DNA of 64,000 bases from a phage. Positions within the stretch are counted from its first letter, which is position 1. Each line of letters starts with the position of its first letter. Positions 7,708-62,092 of this stretch are shown here, one piece after another. The stretch lies in sequence record MZ956761.1. One strand, given 5' to 3'. The position numbers were made by a program, and so were the translations under genes. The notes beneath the pieces were generated by a model that saw only the letters and a program-made list of their open reading frames with translations, was not told the DNA's origin and ran no database searches.

Positions 7708-8404
<697 letters not shown>

Positions 8405-8416
8405 TTTCACAAAGTT

Positions 8417-8446
8417 GTTTACATGCTGATGAGGTAGTGATACTAT
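8417..8446 (+). promoter_or_regulatory. Early promoter (GTTTAC -35, TACTAT -10), copy 1 of repeated cassette
   Basis: GTTTAC 8417-8422, 18-nt spacer, TACTAT 8441-8446; -10 flanked by GAGGTA/TACCTC dyad. Confidence 0.55.
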
Positions 8447-8476
8447 TACCTCATCAAAATTAATTAGGAAAATAAA

Positions 8477-8734
8477 ATGAAAACTTTCAAAGAGTTTGCT
8501 ACAAAAACTATTATCACTGAATCTTCTCATGGTATGGAAGTAAAGCTTGGAATGGCTTTAGCTGAAGCTGAGCGTCTTTTCTCTCGTATTAAAGAACTTG
8601 CTGCTGCAGTCGATCCTTCATCTTTTAAAGGAGACCAAACGAAAGTTAAAGCGCTTTTAGCATTATGCTCTGATGCAGGCGAAATCGCTAAGAACGGTTC
8701 TAAGATGAAGAAACGATTAGAAGATTTAAAATAA
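8477..8734 (+). CDS. Internal-protein-like small protein (CTS-like N-terminus MKTFKEF)
   Basis: 85 aa; RBS AGGAAA; N-terminus resembles capsid targeting sequence with I-x-E site (IITE). Confidence 0.5.
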   Translation: MKTFKEFATKTIITESSHGMEVKLGMALAEAERLFSRIKELAAAVDPSSFKGDQTKVKALLALCSDAGEIAKNGSKMKKRLEDLK

Positions 8735-8746
8735 TTTCACAAAGTT

Positions 8747-8776
8747 GTTTACACGGGGTTTTAGTAGTGATACTAT
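8747..8776 (+). promoter_or_regulatory. Early promoter, copy 2 of repeated cassette
   Basis: Near-identical to 8405-8452: aatttcacaaagttgtttac...gtgatactattacc. Confidence 0.55.
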
Positions 8777-8812
8777 TACCCTATCAAAACAAATGTGAGA
8801 TTGGAGAATAAA

Positions 8813-9046
8813 ATGAAAACTTATCAAGAATTTATTGCTGAAACTGCTGATGTAAAAGTTGAGTTTATTTATACTGACAAGAAAGATAAAATGGGTGAAA
8901 TGCCTCATGGAGTTCTTCGCGATGCATTAGATAATTTCGGTCAACTCGCTGCAGAAGATTACGGTGATAAAATTGTTGTTACTGGTCCTGCTGCAGTTAT
9001 TGAAAAATGGGCAGCAGAAAATAAATCAATTTTTCGTAAAAAATAA
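8813..9046 (+). CDS. Internal protein (IPI-locus type), CTS MKTYQEFIAE
   Basis: 77 aa from ATG 8813 (RBS GGAGAA); exact T4 internal-protein N-terminal decapeptide. Confidence 0.6.
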   Translation: MKTYQEFIAETADVKVEFIYTDKKDKMGEMPHGVLRDALDNFGQLAAEDYGDKIVVTGPAAVIEKWAAENKSIFRKK

Positions 9047-9076
9047 GTTTACTTTTAGATAGGGTAGTGATACTAT
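9047..9076 (+). promoter_or_regulatory. Early promoter, copy 3 of repeated cassette
   Basis: GTTTAC 9047-9052, TACTAT 9071-9076; -10 flanked by 9-bp dyad GATAGGGTA/TACCCTATC. Confidence 0.55.
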
Positions 9077-9104
9077 TACCCTATCAACTACTGAGGAGAA
9101 TAAA

Positions 9105-10088: not shown

Positions 10089-10161
10089 TGGGAATTAGCC
10101 AAGTTGGTAAGGCATAGCACTTTGACTGCTAGATGCAAAGGTTCGAGTCCTTTATTCCCAG
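10089..10161 (+). tRNA. tRNA-Gln (UUG)
   Basis: Acceptor tgggaat/attccca, T-loop ttcgagt, anticodon loop cTTTGAc. Confidence 0.85.
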
Positions 10162-10162
10162 C

Positions 10163-10249
10163 GCGAGAATGGTCAAATTGGTAAAGGCACAGCACTTAAA
10201 ATGCTGCGGAATGATTTCCTTGTGGGTTCGAGTCCCACTTCTCGCACCA
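10163..10249 (+). tRNA. tRNA-Leu (UAA), type II, CCA encoded
   Basis: Acceptor gcgagaa/ttctcgc, anticodon loop cTTAAAa, long variable arm. Confidence 0.85.
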
Positions 10250-10254
10250 AATTT

Positions 10255-10328
<74 letters not shown>

Positions 10329-10338
10329 ATTTAATCTA

Positions 10339-10412
10339 CTCCGTGTAGCTCAGTTTGGTAGAGCGCCTGATTTGGGATCAGGAGGTCCAAGGTTCAAATC
10401 CTTGTATGGAGA
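10339..10412 (+). tRNA. tRNA-Pro (UGG)
   Basis: Acceptor ctccgtg/tatggag (two G-U), anticodon loop tTTGGGa. Confidence 0.8.
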
Positions 10413-10414
10413 CT

Positions 10415-10504
10415 GGAGGCGTGGCAGAGTGGTTTAATGCACCGGTCTTGAAAACCGGCAGTCGCTCCGGCGACTCATAGGTTCAAATCCTATCGCCTCC
10501 GCCA
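10415..10504 (+). tRNA. tRNA-Ser (UGA), type II, CCA encoded
   Basis: Acceptor ggaggcg/cgcctcc, anticodon loop cTTGAAa, long variable arm. Confidence 0.85.
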
Positions 10505-10509
10505 GTTTT

Positions 10510-10585
10510 GCTGATTTAGCTCAGTAGGTAGAGCAACTCACTTGTAATGAGAAGGTCGGCGGTTCGATTCCGTCAATCAGCACCA
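10510..10585 (+). tRNA. tRNA-Thr (UGU), CCA encoded
   Basis: Acceptor gctgatt/aatcagc, anticodon loop cTTGTAa. Confidence 0.85.
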
Positions 10586-10586
10586 A

Positions 10587-10661
10587 GGCCCTGTAGCTGG
10601 AAGGTTCAAGCAAGCGACTCATAATCGCCAGATGGTGGTTCAATTCCACCCAGGGCCACCA
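10587..10661 (+). tRNA. tRNA with CAU anticodon (Ile by analogy with T4; Met not excluded)
   Basis: Acceptor ggccctg/cagggcc, anticodon loop cTCATAa. Confidence 0.8.
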
Positions 10662-10674
10662 AATTAAGAATTAA

Positions 10675-10761
10675 GGGGAGTTATCCCGTAGAGGTAGCGG
10701 TGTGGACTGTAAATCCATTGTCATTGCGACTCGGGTGGTTCGACTCCATCACTCCCCACCA
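10675..10761 (+). tRNA. tRNA-Tyr (GUA), type II, CCA encoded
   Basis: Acceptor ggggagt/actcccc, anticodon loop cTGTAAa, variable arm resembling bacterial tRNA-Tyr. Confidence 0.75.
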
Positions 10762-10765
10762 ATTT

Positions 10766-10840
10766 GGATGTGTAGCTCAATGGCAGAGCGATCGCCTGTT
10801 AAGCGATTGGTTATAGGTTCGAATCCTATCACGTCCGCCA
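10766..10840 (+). tRNA. tRNA-Asn (GUU), CCA encoded
   Basis: Acceptor ggatgtg/cacgtcc, anticodon stem atcgc/gcgat, loop cTGTTAa. Confidence 0.8.
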
Positions 10841-10954
10841 AATTTGTGACAACTGTCACATTAATATCTACTTGACGCGATTATAGGGGTTGAACTGATC
10901 ACTCTTCTCTTAATTTCGTGTGAAGACATCTTGATTGTTGGAGTAGGTATTAAT
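10841..10954 (+). ncRNA. Inter-tRNA spacer, possible small stable RNA
   Basis: 114-nt segment between tRNA-Asn and tRNA-His with hairpin tgtgac-aact-gtcaca at 10845-10860; tRNA processing would release it. Confidence 0.25.
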
Positions 10955-11030
10955 GTGGCCGTAGTTCAGTTGGTAGAACTCGAGATTGTGATTCTCGTAG
11001 TCATGGGTTCGACTCCCATCGGTCACCCCA
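10955..11030 (+). tRNA. tRNA-His (GUG), CCA encoded
   Basis: Acceptor gtggccg/cggtcac, anticodon stem cgaga/tctcg, loop tTGTGAt. Confidence 0.8.
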
Positions 11031-11034
11031 ATTA

Positions 11035-11110
11035 CGGGGCATAGCTCAGAAGGAAGAGCAAGGACCTTCTAAGTCCTAGGTCGTAGGTTCGATCCCTACT
11101 GCCTCGACCA
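11035..11110 (+). tRNA. tRNA-Arg (UCU), CCA encoded
   Basis: Acceptor cggggca/tgcctcg, anticodon loop cTTCTAa. Confidence 0.85.
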
Positions 11111-11126: not shown

Positions 11127-11477
11127 ATGAAAGGTAATGTTTATTTAGTAGTTCATGATTTAACATTCTATTTTAATCATAATGACACTGTTATTTCTGA
11201 ACGTGTAATTAATTTGCTTTATCAGCACGCAGATTATGTTTATGTCGAAAACGAATATGGTCATTGGCAATTTCTTAAAAATCGTTCATTTGGCTTAGAT
11301 GGTTACGAATACTTTGAACGTAAAGACCTTTTAGATAAAATTCCGTTATCTACACAATATCAAAATCACAAATCTTTATATAAATGCCGACCAATTCGAA
11401 ATGTTGAATCCGCGTATGAAGCAATTGATTTATGGCGTAAACGCCGTGAACAGATTGATGCTTTAAAAGAATATTAA
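11127..11477 (+). CDS. Hypothetical protein
   Basis: 116 aa ORF 17 nt after tRNA-Arg; RBS GAGGAAAA. Confidence 0.5.
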   Translation: MKGNVYLVVHDLTFYFNHNDTVISERVINLLYQHADYVYVENEYGHWQFLKNRSFGLDGYEYFERKDLLDKIPLSTQYQNHKSLYKCRPIRNVESAYEAIDLWRKRREQIDALKEY

Positions 11478-11750: not shown

Positions 11751-11788
11751 TTAGCAGGTGGAACCCCGACAAGGTTGCCGCAAGGCTT

Positions 11789-11816
11789 AGCCCCGACCGA
11801 AAGGTTGGGGCTTTTT
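11789..11816 (+). terminator. Rho-independent terminator
   Basis: agccccgacc-gaaa-ggttggggct hairpin followed by TTTTT. Confidence 0.7.
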
Positions 11817-11862
11817 AGTATAAATAAGTATATTAAAACCACGAATTAAAACAGGAAATAAG

Positions 11863-12336
11863 ATGAAATCATATGCTCAATTTTTAAATGAAGCGGTGTT
11901 AAATGAAGCATCTAGCACCGAAATTCAAGCTGTTGCAAAAGCTGCCATTGCCGCGGGTAAATATTCCTATAAGGATGCTTCCGATGAATCACGATTCCAA
12001 TTTGCTCGTGATATGAAAGCCGAAGGATTTACAGGGAATGCAGTTAGTATGGCTTGGAAAAGTTTAGTTGCTACTGGAGCTGCTTTTGCAAAGGCTTCAG
12101 GTAAACCTGCTCCTAAGGCTGACCCTAAAGCAGCACAAGAAAAAAATATTGCTAAAGGAATTATCTCTAGGTATGAAGCAATTCTTAAAGAACTTTTGAT
12201 AATTAAGACCGAAGGCCAGAAACTTGCGCGAGCTCATAGTTTCAAAGATAATCCACATGCTCATGACCTAGAGTATGTTGAAGACATCCAAAAAATTATT
12301 AAAGACCGCATTTGGTCTGCTAAACAAATCAAATAA
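11863..12336 (+). CDS. Hypothetical protein with CTS-like N-terminus (MKSYAQFLNE)
   Basis: 157 aa; RBS AGGAAA; Ala/Lys-rich; N-terminal decapeptide resembles capsid targeting sequence. Confidence 0.5.
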   Translation: MKSYAQFLNEAVLNEASSTEIQAVAKAAIAAGKYSYKDASDESRFQFARDMKAEGFTGNAVSMAWKSLVATGAAFAKASGKPAPKADPKAAQEKNIAKGIISRYEAILKELLIIKTEGQKLARAHSFKDNPHAHDLEYVEDIQKIIKDRIWSAKQIK

Positions 12337-12343
12337 CATTCTT

Positions 12344-12371
12344 AGCCCCGACCGAAAGGTTGGGGCTTTTT
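12344..12371 (+). terminator. Rho-independent terminator (same sequence as 11789-11816)
   Basis: Identical hairpin plus T-tract. Confidence 0.7.
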
Positions 12372-12503
12372 GGTATCTAGGCCTTTCCGGGCCTCTCTAG
12401 GCATCATTTAGTTTATACCCTTTATAATATATTATCCTACCTTTTAATTGCCCCTCCTGACCCTAGAATTCCCTAAAAATTTTTAAAATTTTTTCACAAA
12501 ACG

Positions 12504-15944: not shown

Positions 15945-16381
15945 AAACACTATCAGCTGGTATTATCTTTATGACAGAAGATAAAGATTTATTTATGGGT
16001 CGGGTTACTGGTTCTCGTAAGCCTGGAATGATGGCACACCGCTGGGATATTCCAAAGGGCCGTGTAGAAAATTCTGATTTAAGCGCATTAGATGCAGCAC
16101 GAAGAGAATGTTTAGAAGAGACTGGTTTTAGCAATTATAATCCAGACCTTCTAGAAGACCTAGGTGTATTTAAATATTCTAGTAATAAAGACCTACAGTT
16201 ATTTTATTATACGATTCCAGTAGAGCATGAGATGTTTAGAAATTGCCATTGCGAGTCTTATTTTGAAAATAAAGACGGTGTTATGATTCCAGAGATGGAC
16301 GCTTTTGCTCTTATTCCTCGTACTCAGTGGCAATATGTGATGGGTCCTTCACTTTACCGAATAATGAACAACCTCTTTTAA
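15926..16381 (+). CDS. nudE: Nudix hydrolase NudE
   Basis: 151 aa; Nudix box GRVENSDLSALDAARRECLEETGF; directly upstream of e. Confidence 0.8.
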   Translation: MQEIKMKTLSAGIIFMTEDKDLFMGRVTGSRKPGMMAHRWDIPKGRVENSDLSALDAARRECLEETGFSNYNPDLLEDLGVFKYSSNKDLQLFYYTIPVEHEMFRNCHCESYFENKDGVMIPEMDAFALIPRTQWQYVMGPSLYRIMNNLF

Positions 16382-16912
<531 letters not shown>

Positions 16913-16916
16913 AGTT

Positions 16917-16946
16917 GTTTACTTTCTCCTAGAATTGTGATAGTAT
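16917..16946 (+). promoter_or_regulatory. Early promoter (GTTTAC-N18-TAGTAT)
   Basis: Directly after e stop, upstream of internal-protein gene. Confidence 0.5.
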
Positions 16947-16983
16947 ATTCACAGTTACTAATTAAAATATTTAAAGGAAACAC

Positions 16984-17301
16984 ATGAAAACGTATAAAGA
17001 ATTTATTGCAGAATCTGCTGCAGGACAACGTGTAGAAGGCGGTTATATCTGGATTGAACAAGTTGAGCCGCCGAGTCGCACTTCTACGGGTAAATGGAAA
17101 ATCACTGTTGATGGTCCTGGTGGTAAACGTAGGACTCTTAAAGAAATTAACGGGTACTATGAAGAAGCTCTTTCTGACGCGGGTACTTATATGATGCAAA
17201 TCATGATTAAAAACCCAGAAAATCGTTTTGCGGCTAGAGTTTTCCGCCGTATTGGAAATAAGCTTTATGATGCATATTCTAAAAACTTTCCTAAAGAATA
17301 A
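16984..17301 (+). CDS. Internal protein (CTS MKTYKEFIAE)
   Basis: 105 aa; CTS-type N-terminus with I-A-E site; IPII/IPIII locus position. Confidence 0.6.
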   Translation: MKTYKEFIAESAAGQRVEGGYIWIEQVEPPSRTSTGKWKITVDGPGGKRRTLKEINGYYEEALSDAGTYMMQIMIKNPENRFAARVFRRIGNKLYDAYSKNFPKE

Positions 17302-17317
17302 AAATTAAAGGATACAC

Positions 17318-17791
17318 ATGAAAACATATCAAGAATTTATTACTGAAGCAGCTATTAATTCTCAAATTATTGCTGAATCTTTTACTGATCTTTTGAAATT
17401 TAAAAAAGGTCAAAAAATCACTGCTGTATTGGATGATGGTACAGAAGTTGAGATGGATGTACAGGGATATAATTATGCAGTAGATGGAAAACTGTATAAT
17501 AAATCTCATGCTAAATTTGATTCATTTGACGACTTTGTTAATACAGTTGAAGATGAAAAAACTCGTAGATCCATTGCAACTGGTGATGCTAAGGTTCTTA
17601 TGGCACATGGTCATGAACGCATTCGCGCTAAACAGAATAAAATGGGTGAAGATAATTTTGCATTAGTTGGTTATCAATCTGGTAAACAAACTTATGGCTA
17701 TCAGCGTACTGCTACCATGTATAACAAAAATGGTAAAATCGCTTTCGTGAATAGCAAAGGCTCTATTCAGTACGTCAAATCATTCAAATAA
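17318..17791 (+). CDS. Internal protein (CTS MKTYQEFITE)
   Basis: 157 aa; CTS-type N-terminus. Confidence 0.6.
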   Translation: MKTYQEFITEAAINSQIIAESFTDLLKFKKGQKITAVLDDGTEVEMDVQGYNYAVDGKLYNKSHAKFDSFDDFVNTVEDEKTRRSIATGDAKVLMAHGHERIRAKQNKMGEDNFALVGYQSGKQTYGYQRTATMYNKNGKIAFVNSKGSIQYVKSFK

Positions 17792-17944
17792 GCAAATAAG
17801 AAATATGGGAACAAGCTGGACCTCATGATTCTATGAGGGATTCCCGCCAACCTGTAATAAGGTCGAGCCCAAGCGCGGTAATGGGTAAATACAGAAATGG
17901 ACAATTCATGCGCCATGGAATGGCCCAAATTTAGAGAGAATAAA

Positions 17945-18484
17945 ATGAGAACATTTTTAACTGGTCCTTATCTATCCCTGATGAATGCTTTTACACACCA
18001 TTCTGATGCTAGAGTAGAAGAAATTTGTAAAAACGAATATATCCCGCCATTTGAAGACTTACTCAAACAGTACTGCACACTTCGCATAGATGGTGGACGT
18101 CAATCCGGCAAATCAATTGCTGTGACTAACTTTGCTGCTAATTGGCTGTATGATGGCGGAACAGTTATTGTTCTTTCTAATACTTCAGCTTACGCTAAAA
18201 TTTCTGCAAATAACATCAAAAAGGAATTTTCGCGTTATTCTAATGATGATATACGTTTTCGTTTATTTACTGATTCTGTGCGCAGTTTTATTGGTAATAA
18301 AGGAAGCAAGTTCAGAGGTTTATCGCTTTCGCGAATTTTGTATATAATTGATGAGCCTGTCAAATCTCCTGATATGGATAAGATTTATAGTGTCCATATT
18401 GACACTGTACACTACTGCTGTAATAGTAAATGTTGCATTGGTGGTATTACTCGTCCGCAGTTTTTCGTAATCGGAATGCAATGA
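17945..18484 (+). CDS. Small P-loop NTPase-like protein
   Basis: 179 aa from ATG 17945 (RBS GAGAGAATAAA); Walker A-like DGGRQSGKS and Walker B-like ILYIIDEP; where T4 has denV. Confidence 0.45.
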   Translation: MRTFLTGPYLSLMNAFTHHSDARVEEICKNEYIPPFEDLLKQYCTLRIDGGRQSGKSIAVTNFAANWLYDGGTVIVLSNTSAYAKISANNIKKEFSRYSNDDIRFRLFTDSVRSFIGNKGSKFRGLSLSRILYIIDEPVKSPDMDKIYSVHIDTVHYCCNSKCCIGGITRPQFFVIGMQ

Positions 18485-61160: not shown

Positions 61161-61263
61161 AACTGAAATCACCAATTATTGCAATTTGTCTGTTTGCTTC
61201 TACTAGTGTTTACTTTTGTTGAAAATTGAGATACTATAAATATAAACTACTGAGGAGATTATC

Positions 61264-61927: not shown

Positions 61928-62092
61928 ATGAAAACATATAAAGAATTTATTAAAGAAGATATGGTCGCTGGAGATTCAGGTGGTAATCCTGAAAATATCT
62001 CCACTGGAACAACGTCAGGCGCTGTAGTAAATAAAGGTCCTGAACAGATTCCTAAAAAGAAAAAAGAGGAATCTAAAGAAAAAGAAGAGTAA
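61928..62092 (+). CDS. Small protein with CTS-like N-terminus (MKTYKEFIKE)
   Basis: 54 aa; after I-K-E the rest is Gly/Lys/Glu-rich. Confidence 0.4.
   Translation: MKTYKEFIKEDMVAGDSGGNPENISTGTTSGAVVNKGPEQIPKKKKEESKEKEE

Follow-up and report, generated by a model that had tools for sequence, protein, structure and literature searches.

The phage sequence record MZ956761.1 was analysed as a stretch of 64,000 nucleotides (nt), one strand, 5' to 3', which is referred to below as the window. The flagged interval, positions 16984-17791, is occupied by two genes whose products start with MK[TS][YF]x[EQ]F, a signature resembling the capsid targeting sequence (CTS) of the internal proteins (IPs) of T-even phages. 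The original prediction, that open reading frames (ORFs) at 8477, 8813, 16984, 17318, 61928 and possibly 11863 share this N-terminal signature together with an I/L-x-E site, was confirmed for all six at these starts on the + strand, and in each of them the ATG is preceded by a Shine-Dalgarno-like purine run. The genes are listed below with protein lengths in amino acids (aa) and with a slash at the predicted cut of the prohead protease gp21.

8477-8734, + strand: Ip5-type gene, 85 aa; IPI-like long propeptide MKTFKEFATKTIITE/S
8813-9046, + strand: Bas37_0260-type gene, 77 aa; MKTYQEFIAE/T
11863-12336, + strand: 11863 gene, 157 aa; MKSYAQFLNE/AVLNE/ASS...
16984-17301, + strand: Ip10-type gene, 105 aa; MKTYKEFIAE/S; first gene after the lysozyme gene e
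17318-17791, + strand: IpIV-type gene, 157 aa; MKTYQEFITE/A, with a second I-A-E site at residues 18-20
61928-62092, + strand: gp61.1 ortholog, 54 aa; MKTYKEFIKE/DMVAGD...KKKKEESKEKEE; between 61.2 and the primase gene 61

The N-terminal signature of the six proteins

Six-frame translation of the window returned seven matches to the core motif K[TS][YF]x[EQ]F, of which six follow a start Met and the seventh crosses a stop codon. Random sequence of the same dinucleotide content gave a mean of 0.43 matches and a maximum of three, and a relaxed motif pattern run over the window added no further candidates. Similarity among the six proteins, and between them and T4 IPI, IPII and IPIII, is limited to the first 10-14 residues; alignments in all-against-all BLASTP ended near residues 10-25, save for weak, non-significant longer stretches, and the proteins range from 54 to 157 aa in size. 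In five ORFs the I/L-x-E site closes at residue 10, in Ip5 at residue 15; the 11863 protein and IpIV each have a second site, ending at residue 15 and residue 20, respectively.

The first 10 residues of T4 IPIII are enough to bring foreign proteins inside the head; targeting depends most on residues 4 and 7, and processing on residues 8 and 10 (Mullaney & Black 1996, as cited in PMC9026906). An aromatic residue 4 and Phe 7 were found in all six ORFs, as were the processing determinants, with Ip5 having its site later in the manner of IPI. The protease gp21 cuts after the Glu of I/LxE motifs (PMC12991175), and internal proteins, in a few hundred copies, become part of the scaffolding core; after trimming they remain with the DNA and are injected (PMC9546572; PMC3012670). 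Each of T4 IPI, IPII and IPIII inhibits a different GmrSD-type type IV restriction enzyme (PMC12373910; PMC9391042), and IPIII has been linked to infection of ECOR17 (PMC9391042).

The three T4 proteins and those of the window have in common the N-terminal CTS (MKTYQEFIAE in IPII and IPIII, MKTFKEF...ITE in IPI) with its I/L-x-E site for gp21, small size, the same two loci (57B to trna.4, and downstream of e) with early promoters, and a presumed pathway leading from core enclosure through cleavage and co-injection to inhibition of type IV restriction; their mature bodies, in contrast, are unrelated. A variable IP locus with cassette-like flanks was found for 8477, 8813, 16984 and 17318; 11863 sits elsewhere, in a cassette that is itself present or absent, and the gp61.1 gene is in the conserved primase operon.

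The shared 5' sequence might alternatively be a nucleic-acid element, such as a recombination hotspot or a translation-initiation region, carrying no peptide signal. At the ipI locus, the promoter, ribosome-binding site and first-codon region are indeed repeated as a cassette, and the T-even literature proposes conserved ends as an aid to cassette exchange. However, the CTS codons vary synonymously (ACT/ACG/ACA, GCT/GCA), and therefore it is the peptide and not the DNA that is conserved; 11863 and gp61.1 share the peptide despite unrelated upstream DNA, and the targeting of foreign proteins by the first 10 residues reported in PMC9026906 also speaks for a peptide signal. We consider this alternative very improbable, while a recombination role may coexist with the peptide signal without replacing it. 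The explanation held with high confidence is that the six ORFs bear the T-even CTS and that the phage is a Tequatrovirus.

Sequences, homologies, promoters and cassette structure were computed here; from these we infer packaging, cleavage and injection, as well as targets for Ip5, Ip10, IpIV, the 11863 protein and gp61.1. By analogy with experiments on T4 IPIII, the N-terminal decapeptide would bind the scaffolding core during prohead assembly, and the protein would thereby be enclosed in the prohead in up to a few hundred copies. The gp21 protease would then cut after the Glu of I/L-x-E, and the mature protein would stay in the head with the DNA, be injected with it and disarm first-line host defences. 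In this phage, the classical loci would hold other alleles, namely Ip5 and the Bas37_0260 type between 57B and trna.4, and Ip10 and IpIV between e and vs.8; the 11863 protein would be a further internal protein expressed from a separate late-promoter cassette, and gp61.1 would be a gp21 substrate, as a copy of the site where gp23 is cleaved and of the first part of its mature N-terminal arm. T4 Alt, gp67 and gp68 are likewise packaged via core association and trimmed by gp21 after Glu. They differ from the proteins considered here in having other propeptides and in not being cassette-like, and their genes lie outside the window.

The prediction of five or six candidate capsid-packaged proteins agrees with the evidence, which comprises four known families, one well-supported new candidate (11863) and one ambiguous case (gp61.1). 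The phenomenon itself is established T-even biology, and most of the finding is already known: Ip10 and IpIV are annotated in GenBank, and at least 10 Ip types had been recognised by their CTS signal (Repoila et al. 1994 and later work, as cited in PMC12373910 and PMC3012670), with many different CTS proteins in T-even phages stated also in PMC3012670 and PMC9026906. Multiple CTS proteins in T-even phages are not a new idea, having been known since 1994. The proteins of 8477, 16984 and 17318 are polymorphic T-even Ip proteins of the Ip4-Ip13 type as cited from Repoila et al. 1994, with no substantive difference. Two points go beyond current annotation: 11863 as a well-supported additional IP candidate, in a cassette that is cleanly present or absent, and the resemblance of gp61.1 to gp23.

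Internal protein genes at the ipI locus and downstream of e

Judging by nucleotide identity, the source of the window is a T4-like Escherichia phage of the genus Tequatrovirus. The flagged region is 100% identical to Escherichia phage ADUt and approximately 96-98% identical to many other Tequatrovirus genomes. The + strand corresponds to the T4 early-transcription strand, and the gene order agrees with that of T4 (synteny), with a first block of 1, 57A, 57B, IP genes, trna.4, trna.3, trna.2 and the tRNA cluster, a second block of e.x genes, nudE, e (lysozyme, 16418-16912), IP genes and vs.8, and a block far downstream consisting of sp, 61.2, 61.1 and 61. Phage ADUt matches positions 16400-17900 (e/ip10/ipIV) at 100% but positions 8400-9100 (the ipI locus) at just 97.3% and in two pieces, while phage GADU22 is 100% identical in the ipI-locus stretch; these sequence comparisons show mosaicism at IP loci among very close isolates.

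The 8477 protein is 98% identical to PP01 Ip5 and 99% identical to bas37_0261, and belongs to the family phrog_3499 "internal head protein". The 8813 protein is 99% identical to Bas37_0260 and belongs to phrog_8111 "internal virion protein"; its reading frame extends upstream to a GTG at 8795, and the ATG at 8813 agrees with the annotated ortholog. Knockout of Bas37_0260 makes phage Bas37 specifically McrBC-sensitive, and the protein was described as an inhibitor of this type IV restriction system that has only the N-terminal signal in common with IPI, IPII and IPIII (preprint 10.1101/2025.11.20.689424). In the literature, anti-defence activity is on record for T4 IPI, IPII and IPIII and for this 99%-identical ortholog of 8813 only. 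Neither Ip5 nor the 8813 protein matched any Pfam or NCBIfam family.

The 16984 gene is annotated as "ip10: Ip10 internal head protein" and the 17318 gene as "ipIV" in phage PP01, the DNA of which matches both at approximately 96%, and both are "internal head protein" in ADUt. Homologs of the 16984 protein are named Ip10 or IpII internal head protein in their source records, with a family match to phrog_3966; the Ip10 body is unrelated to T4 IPII and IPIII, and the protein had no Pfam or NCBIfam family match. IpIV matched phrog_3155 "internal virion protein" (E 6e-102) and Pfam DUF7412. Homology of its body with T4 IPII is not claimed, the alignment being 30% over 76 aa (E 5e-6) with about one third of the identities in the CTS. 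A PDB sequence search with Ip10 and IpIV returned no match, sub-threshold matches of the two, such as to CsgH and to a curli-inhibitor family, were taken as noise, and the AlphaFold2 (AF2) model of Ip10 was unusable (pLDDT 48).

The genes T4 ipI, ipII and ipIII themselves are absent from the window, and their loci carry replacement alleles. The idea that there are more CTS proteins here than the three classical ones therefore holds as to number, six being present, but the classical ones have been replaced rather than supplemented.

Regulatory features at the two loci are as follows, the promoters coming from a pattern search and the repeats from a repeat search:

8389-8464 and again 8719-8794, + strand: repeated cassette junction of 76 nt, comprising the preceding gene's last codons and the early promoter GTTTAC-N16-GATACTAT
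16384 and 16397, + strand: late promoters TATAAATA upstream of e
16917-16946, + strand: T4 early-type promoter GTTTAC-N16-GATAGTAT upstream of ip10

The early promoter GTTTAC-N16-GATACTAT stands three times in tandem, at 8417-8457 (for Ip5), 8747-8787 (for 8813) and 9047-9087 (for trna.4). Early promoters ahead of 8477, 8813 and 16984 fit the behaviour of T4 ipI, ipII and ipIII, which belong to the class of early RNA and late protein (PMC9697503 supplement). Furthermore, the late promoters of e can read through into the IP genes, since no terminator-like site was found in 16300-18000.

The earliest answer of the phage to host defences lies in its internal proteins, which reach the cell together with the DNA and inactivate type IV restriction enzymes that would otherwise cut DNA containing glucosylated hydroxymethylcytosine. 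Each Ip allele appears to be matched to one nuclease variant, so that the Ip set helps to set host range, which is of relevance to the choice of therapeutic T4-like phages. The catalogue of Ip5, Bas37_0260 type, Ip10 and IpIV in the window is in this respect a useful annotation, not a discovery.

Some observations were made on the surroundings of these genes. Each copy of GTTTAC-N16-GATACTAT lies within an inverted repeat overlapping the -10 element (for example GAGGTAGTGATACTATTACCTC). The 57B gene (7949-8404), directly upstream of the IP genes, is labelled "anti-CBASS protein" in GADU22 and ADUt, and therefore the ipI locus adjoins another anti-defence gene. At the other locus, denV, which in T4 stands between ipII and vs.8, is absent from the window, and the vs.8 homolog (17833-18484) is divided over two frames that overlap, with 17833-17928 corresponding to residues 1-32 of T4 vs.8 and 17897-18481 to residues 26-219; this reflects either a frameshifted pseudogene or a sequencing error.

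A late-promoter cassette with a candidate internal protein

The 11863 gene lies in a cassette of its own, delimited by the following features:

11786-11821, + strand: upstream copy of a terminator hairpin, ending the tRNA/small-RNA region (rnaC in T4)
11819-11826, + strand: late promoter TATAAATA, 44 nt upstream of the 11863 ATG
12341-12376, + strand: downstream hairpin copy, serving as terminator of the 11863 gene

Late promoter and gene form a 555-bp cassette (window 11786-12376) flanked by 36-nt direct repeats that are 97% identical. The T4 counterpart is an empty site with one hairpin and no gene, and the cassette was probably gained or lost via recombination between the repeats. The late promoter is kept at -44/-48 in the Klebsiella phage homolog, and in the record of vB_EcoM_SA20RB it is independently annotated as T4-late.

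In every record listed, the 11863 product is a "hypothetical protein" (phrog_2280, function unknown), and none calls it an internal protein. In an alignment of the family, with homologs down to 39% identity and including Yersinia and Klebsiella phages, F7 is invariant, and [L/M/F]-x-E always stands directly before ASSSDV, where the conserved mature part begins, behind leaders of 9 to 15 residues. Retention of the Glu before ASSSDV with a leader of changing length is as expected for a propeptide that is cut off, and another explanation is hard to find. The AF2 model (pLDDT 77) consists of a flexible N-terminus, a three-helix domain, a Pro/Lys/Ala-rich linker and a helical hairpin; Foldseek comparison of this model with BFVD and PDB matched only its own family and gave no functional clue, and sequence searches returned no match in Pfam, NCBIfam or PDB.

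The fact that the protein is hypothetical in all records, with neither a family nor a structural match to suggest its function, would also suit a late protein that does something else, perhaps as a tail or lysis accessory or in the cytoplasm, and whose N-terminus is merely CTS-like. Its N-terminus is in addition the most divergent of the six (S3, A5, Q6, L8, N9). Against such a role stand the late promoter, which suits a virion component, and F7 and the [LMF]-x-E before the mature start, kept down to 39% identity behind a propeptide of 9-15 residues; we consider it unlikely.

Virion proteomics of phage fD1 using liquid chromatography coupled to tandem mass spectrometry (PMC8309999 Table S3) bears on several of these proteins. 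The 11863 homolog (g140) was detected at the strict threshold, and so were g146 from the ipI locus and g129, which has the same length and locus as IpIV and is assumed to be its ortholog; gp61.1 (g034) gave a weak signal that did not reach this threshold, and neither of its neighbours, primase and 61.2, was detected (PMC8309999). The specificity of this dataset is low, with 137 of 277 phage proteins reported along with 672 host proteins, and because of this the detection of the 11863 homolog and of gp61.1 is weak evidence.

Taking the family pattern, promoter and cassette together, the 11863 protein is probably packaged as a new internal protein, and its widespread late gene family should then probably be re-annotated accordingly.

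It should be added that the region preceding the cassette carries 11 contiguous tRNA genes according to ARAGORN (window 10089-11110), including Met, Tyr, Asn and His, as compared with eight annotated in T4. The cluster leaves no room for the segB homing endonuclease, which interrupts the T4 cluster, and is followed by an unannotated ORF of 116 aa (11127-11477).

gp61.1 and the maturation site of gp23

The 61928 protein is 96% identical to T4 gp61.1, which starts with MKTFKEFIKE/DMVAGD. The signature predicted for this ORF is present, but it belongs to a longer homology with the cleavage region of gp23, the major capsid protein, and is found in T4 itself too. Residues 2-38 of gp61.1 align without gaps to gp23 residues 57-93 (43% identity, pairwise E 1e-8), with I-K-E/D in register with the gp23 maturation site L-T-E65/A66, and the CTS residues 4, 7, 8 and 10 of gp61.1 correspond to gp23 F59, F62, L63 and E65. 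Maturation of gp23 removes 65 residues (PMC9546572). A profile of 15 gp61.1 family members searched against all PDB sequences had gp23 as its sole match (E 1.3e-5), and gp61.1 matched nothing in Pfam or NCBIfam. The gp23 maturation site, grouped with the 10-residue propeptide of gp24, is among the closest known systems for gp61.1.

Some gp61.1 homologs carry the label "major capsid domain-containing protein". This was ruled out, as the protein has 54 aa and matches gp23 residues 57-94 only; gp23 has 521 aa and an HK97-type capsid fold, whereas gp61.1 is devoid of that fold, has a tail rich in Lys and comes from the primase operon. By alignment, it is a local copy of the gp23 maturation-site and N-arm segment and no capsid protein. 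In gp23, residues 66-105 are disordered in the unexpanded head, in which they presumably touch the scaffolding core; at a later stage they make up the N-arm and N-fist, with inter-capsomer and Soc contacts (PMC9546572). Since gp61.1 copies the cleavage site and the start of the N-terminal arm, it is probably a gp21 substrate and would hence enter proheads.

The gp61.1 gene is present at no less than 95% nt identity in 503 phage records, and none of those inspected annotates it as an internal protein. Outside Tequatrovirus, long "61.1" orthologs of approximately 140-250 aa (Acj9, PX29; across Straboviridae) carry an unrelated N-terminal domain of about 100 aa, then the gp23-like module and finally a Lys-rich tail. 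Of the orthologs inspected, short and long, nearly all have [LIMF]-x-E ahead of this module. The literature searches returned no study of gp61.1.

Several of these data weigh against the view that all six proteins carry a working CTS, mostly in the case of gp61.1. Its gene sits in the primase operon and is highly conserved, unlike the variable IP genes; the long orthologs lack the N-terminal CTS, and a few distant homologs have V or S in place of F7. The RNA of the T4 gene is early, and a time-course proteome of infected cells did not show its product (PMC9697503 supplement). The late-promoter sequence TATAAATA upstream of sp is not conserved in T4. Both gp61.1 (isoelectric point, pI, 5.5) and the 8813 protein (pI 5.3) are acidic, in contrast to the classically basic internal proteins, and the low specificity of the fD1 dataset described above belongs to the same side of the balance.

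With respect to gp61.1, several of these points would equally follow if the protein acted outside the IP pathway and its "CTS" were only part of a gp23-derived segment spanning the maturation site. It could then be a competing substrate or regulator of gp21, an assembly factor at gp23 N-arm sites, or a gp23 decoy, in keeping with the ungapped alignment with cleavage sites in register, the PDB profile match to gp23 alone, the C-terminal position of the module behind a different domain in long orthologs, and the core and N-arm contacts of gp23 residues 66-105. In the main reading, too, the strong conservation makes gp61.1 look like an assembly or structural peptide more than an arms-race effector. 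Against a role outside the IP pathway, the usual description of gp21 is that of a protease working within the assembled prohead (PMC9546572), so that a conserved site suggests entry; the Tequatrovirus N-terminus has all four key CTS residues (Y4, F7, I8, E10), and there is the weak detection in fD1 virions. A role outside the IP pathway is accordingly a serious contender, which we place somewhat below even chances. It overlaps in part with the CTS explanation, as a packaged assembly peptide would satisfy both. Packaging of gp61.1 is, for its part, nearly an even matter, with the balance tipped slightly towards the negative.

A wider proposition joins the two unusual genes: T4-like phages, T4 included, would package more CTS-type proteins than annotated, with phrog_2280 as a third IP locus and gp61.1 as a gp21-processed head peptide. 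We put this forward tentatively, as less likely than not when taken as a whole. If it were true, the phrog_2280 (11863) locus would be gained or lost independently, as a late-promoter cassette between duplicated terminator hairpins, and gp61.1, conserved across Straboviridae, would yield an unrecognised head-internal or capsid-binding peptide of 44 residues.

The TATAAATA sequence upstream of sp, at 61235 (window 61208-61242), was considered as a late promoter for gp61.1 and rejected: it overlaps the -10 element of the sp early promoter, T4 has TATATAAACA in its place, and the match is probably a single-base accident.

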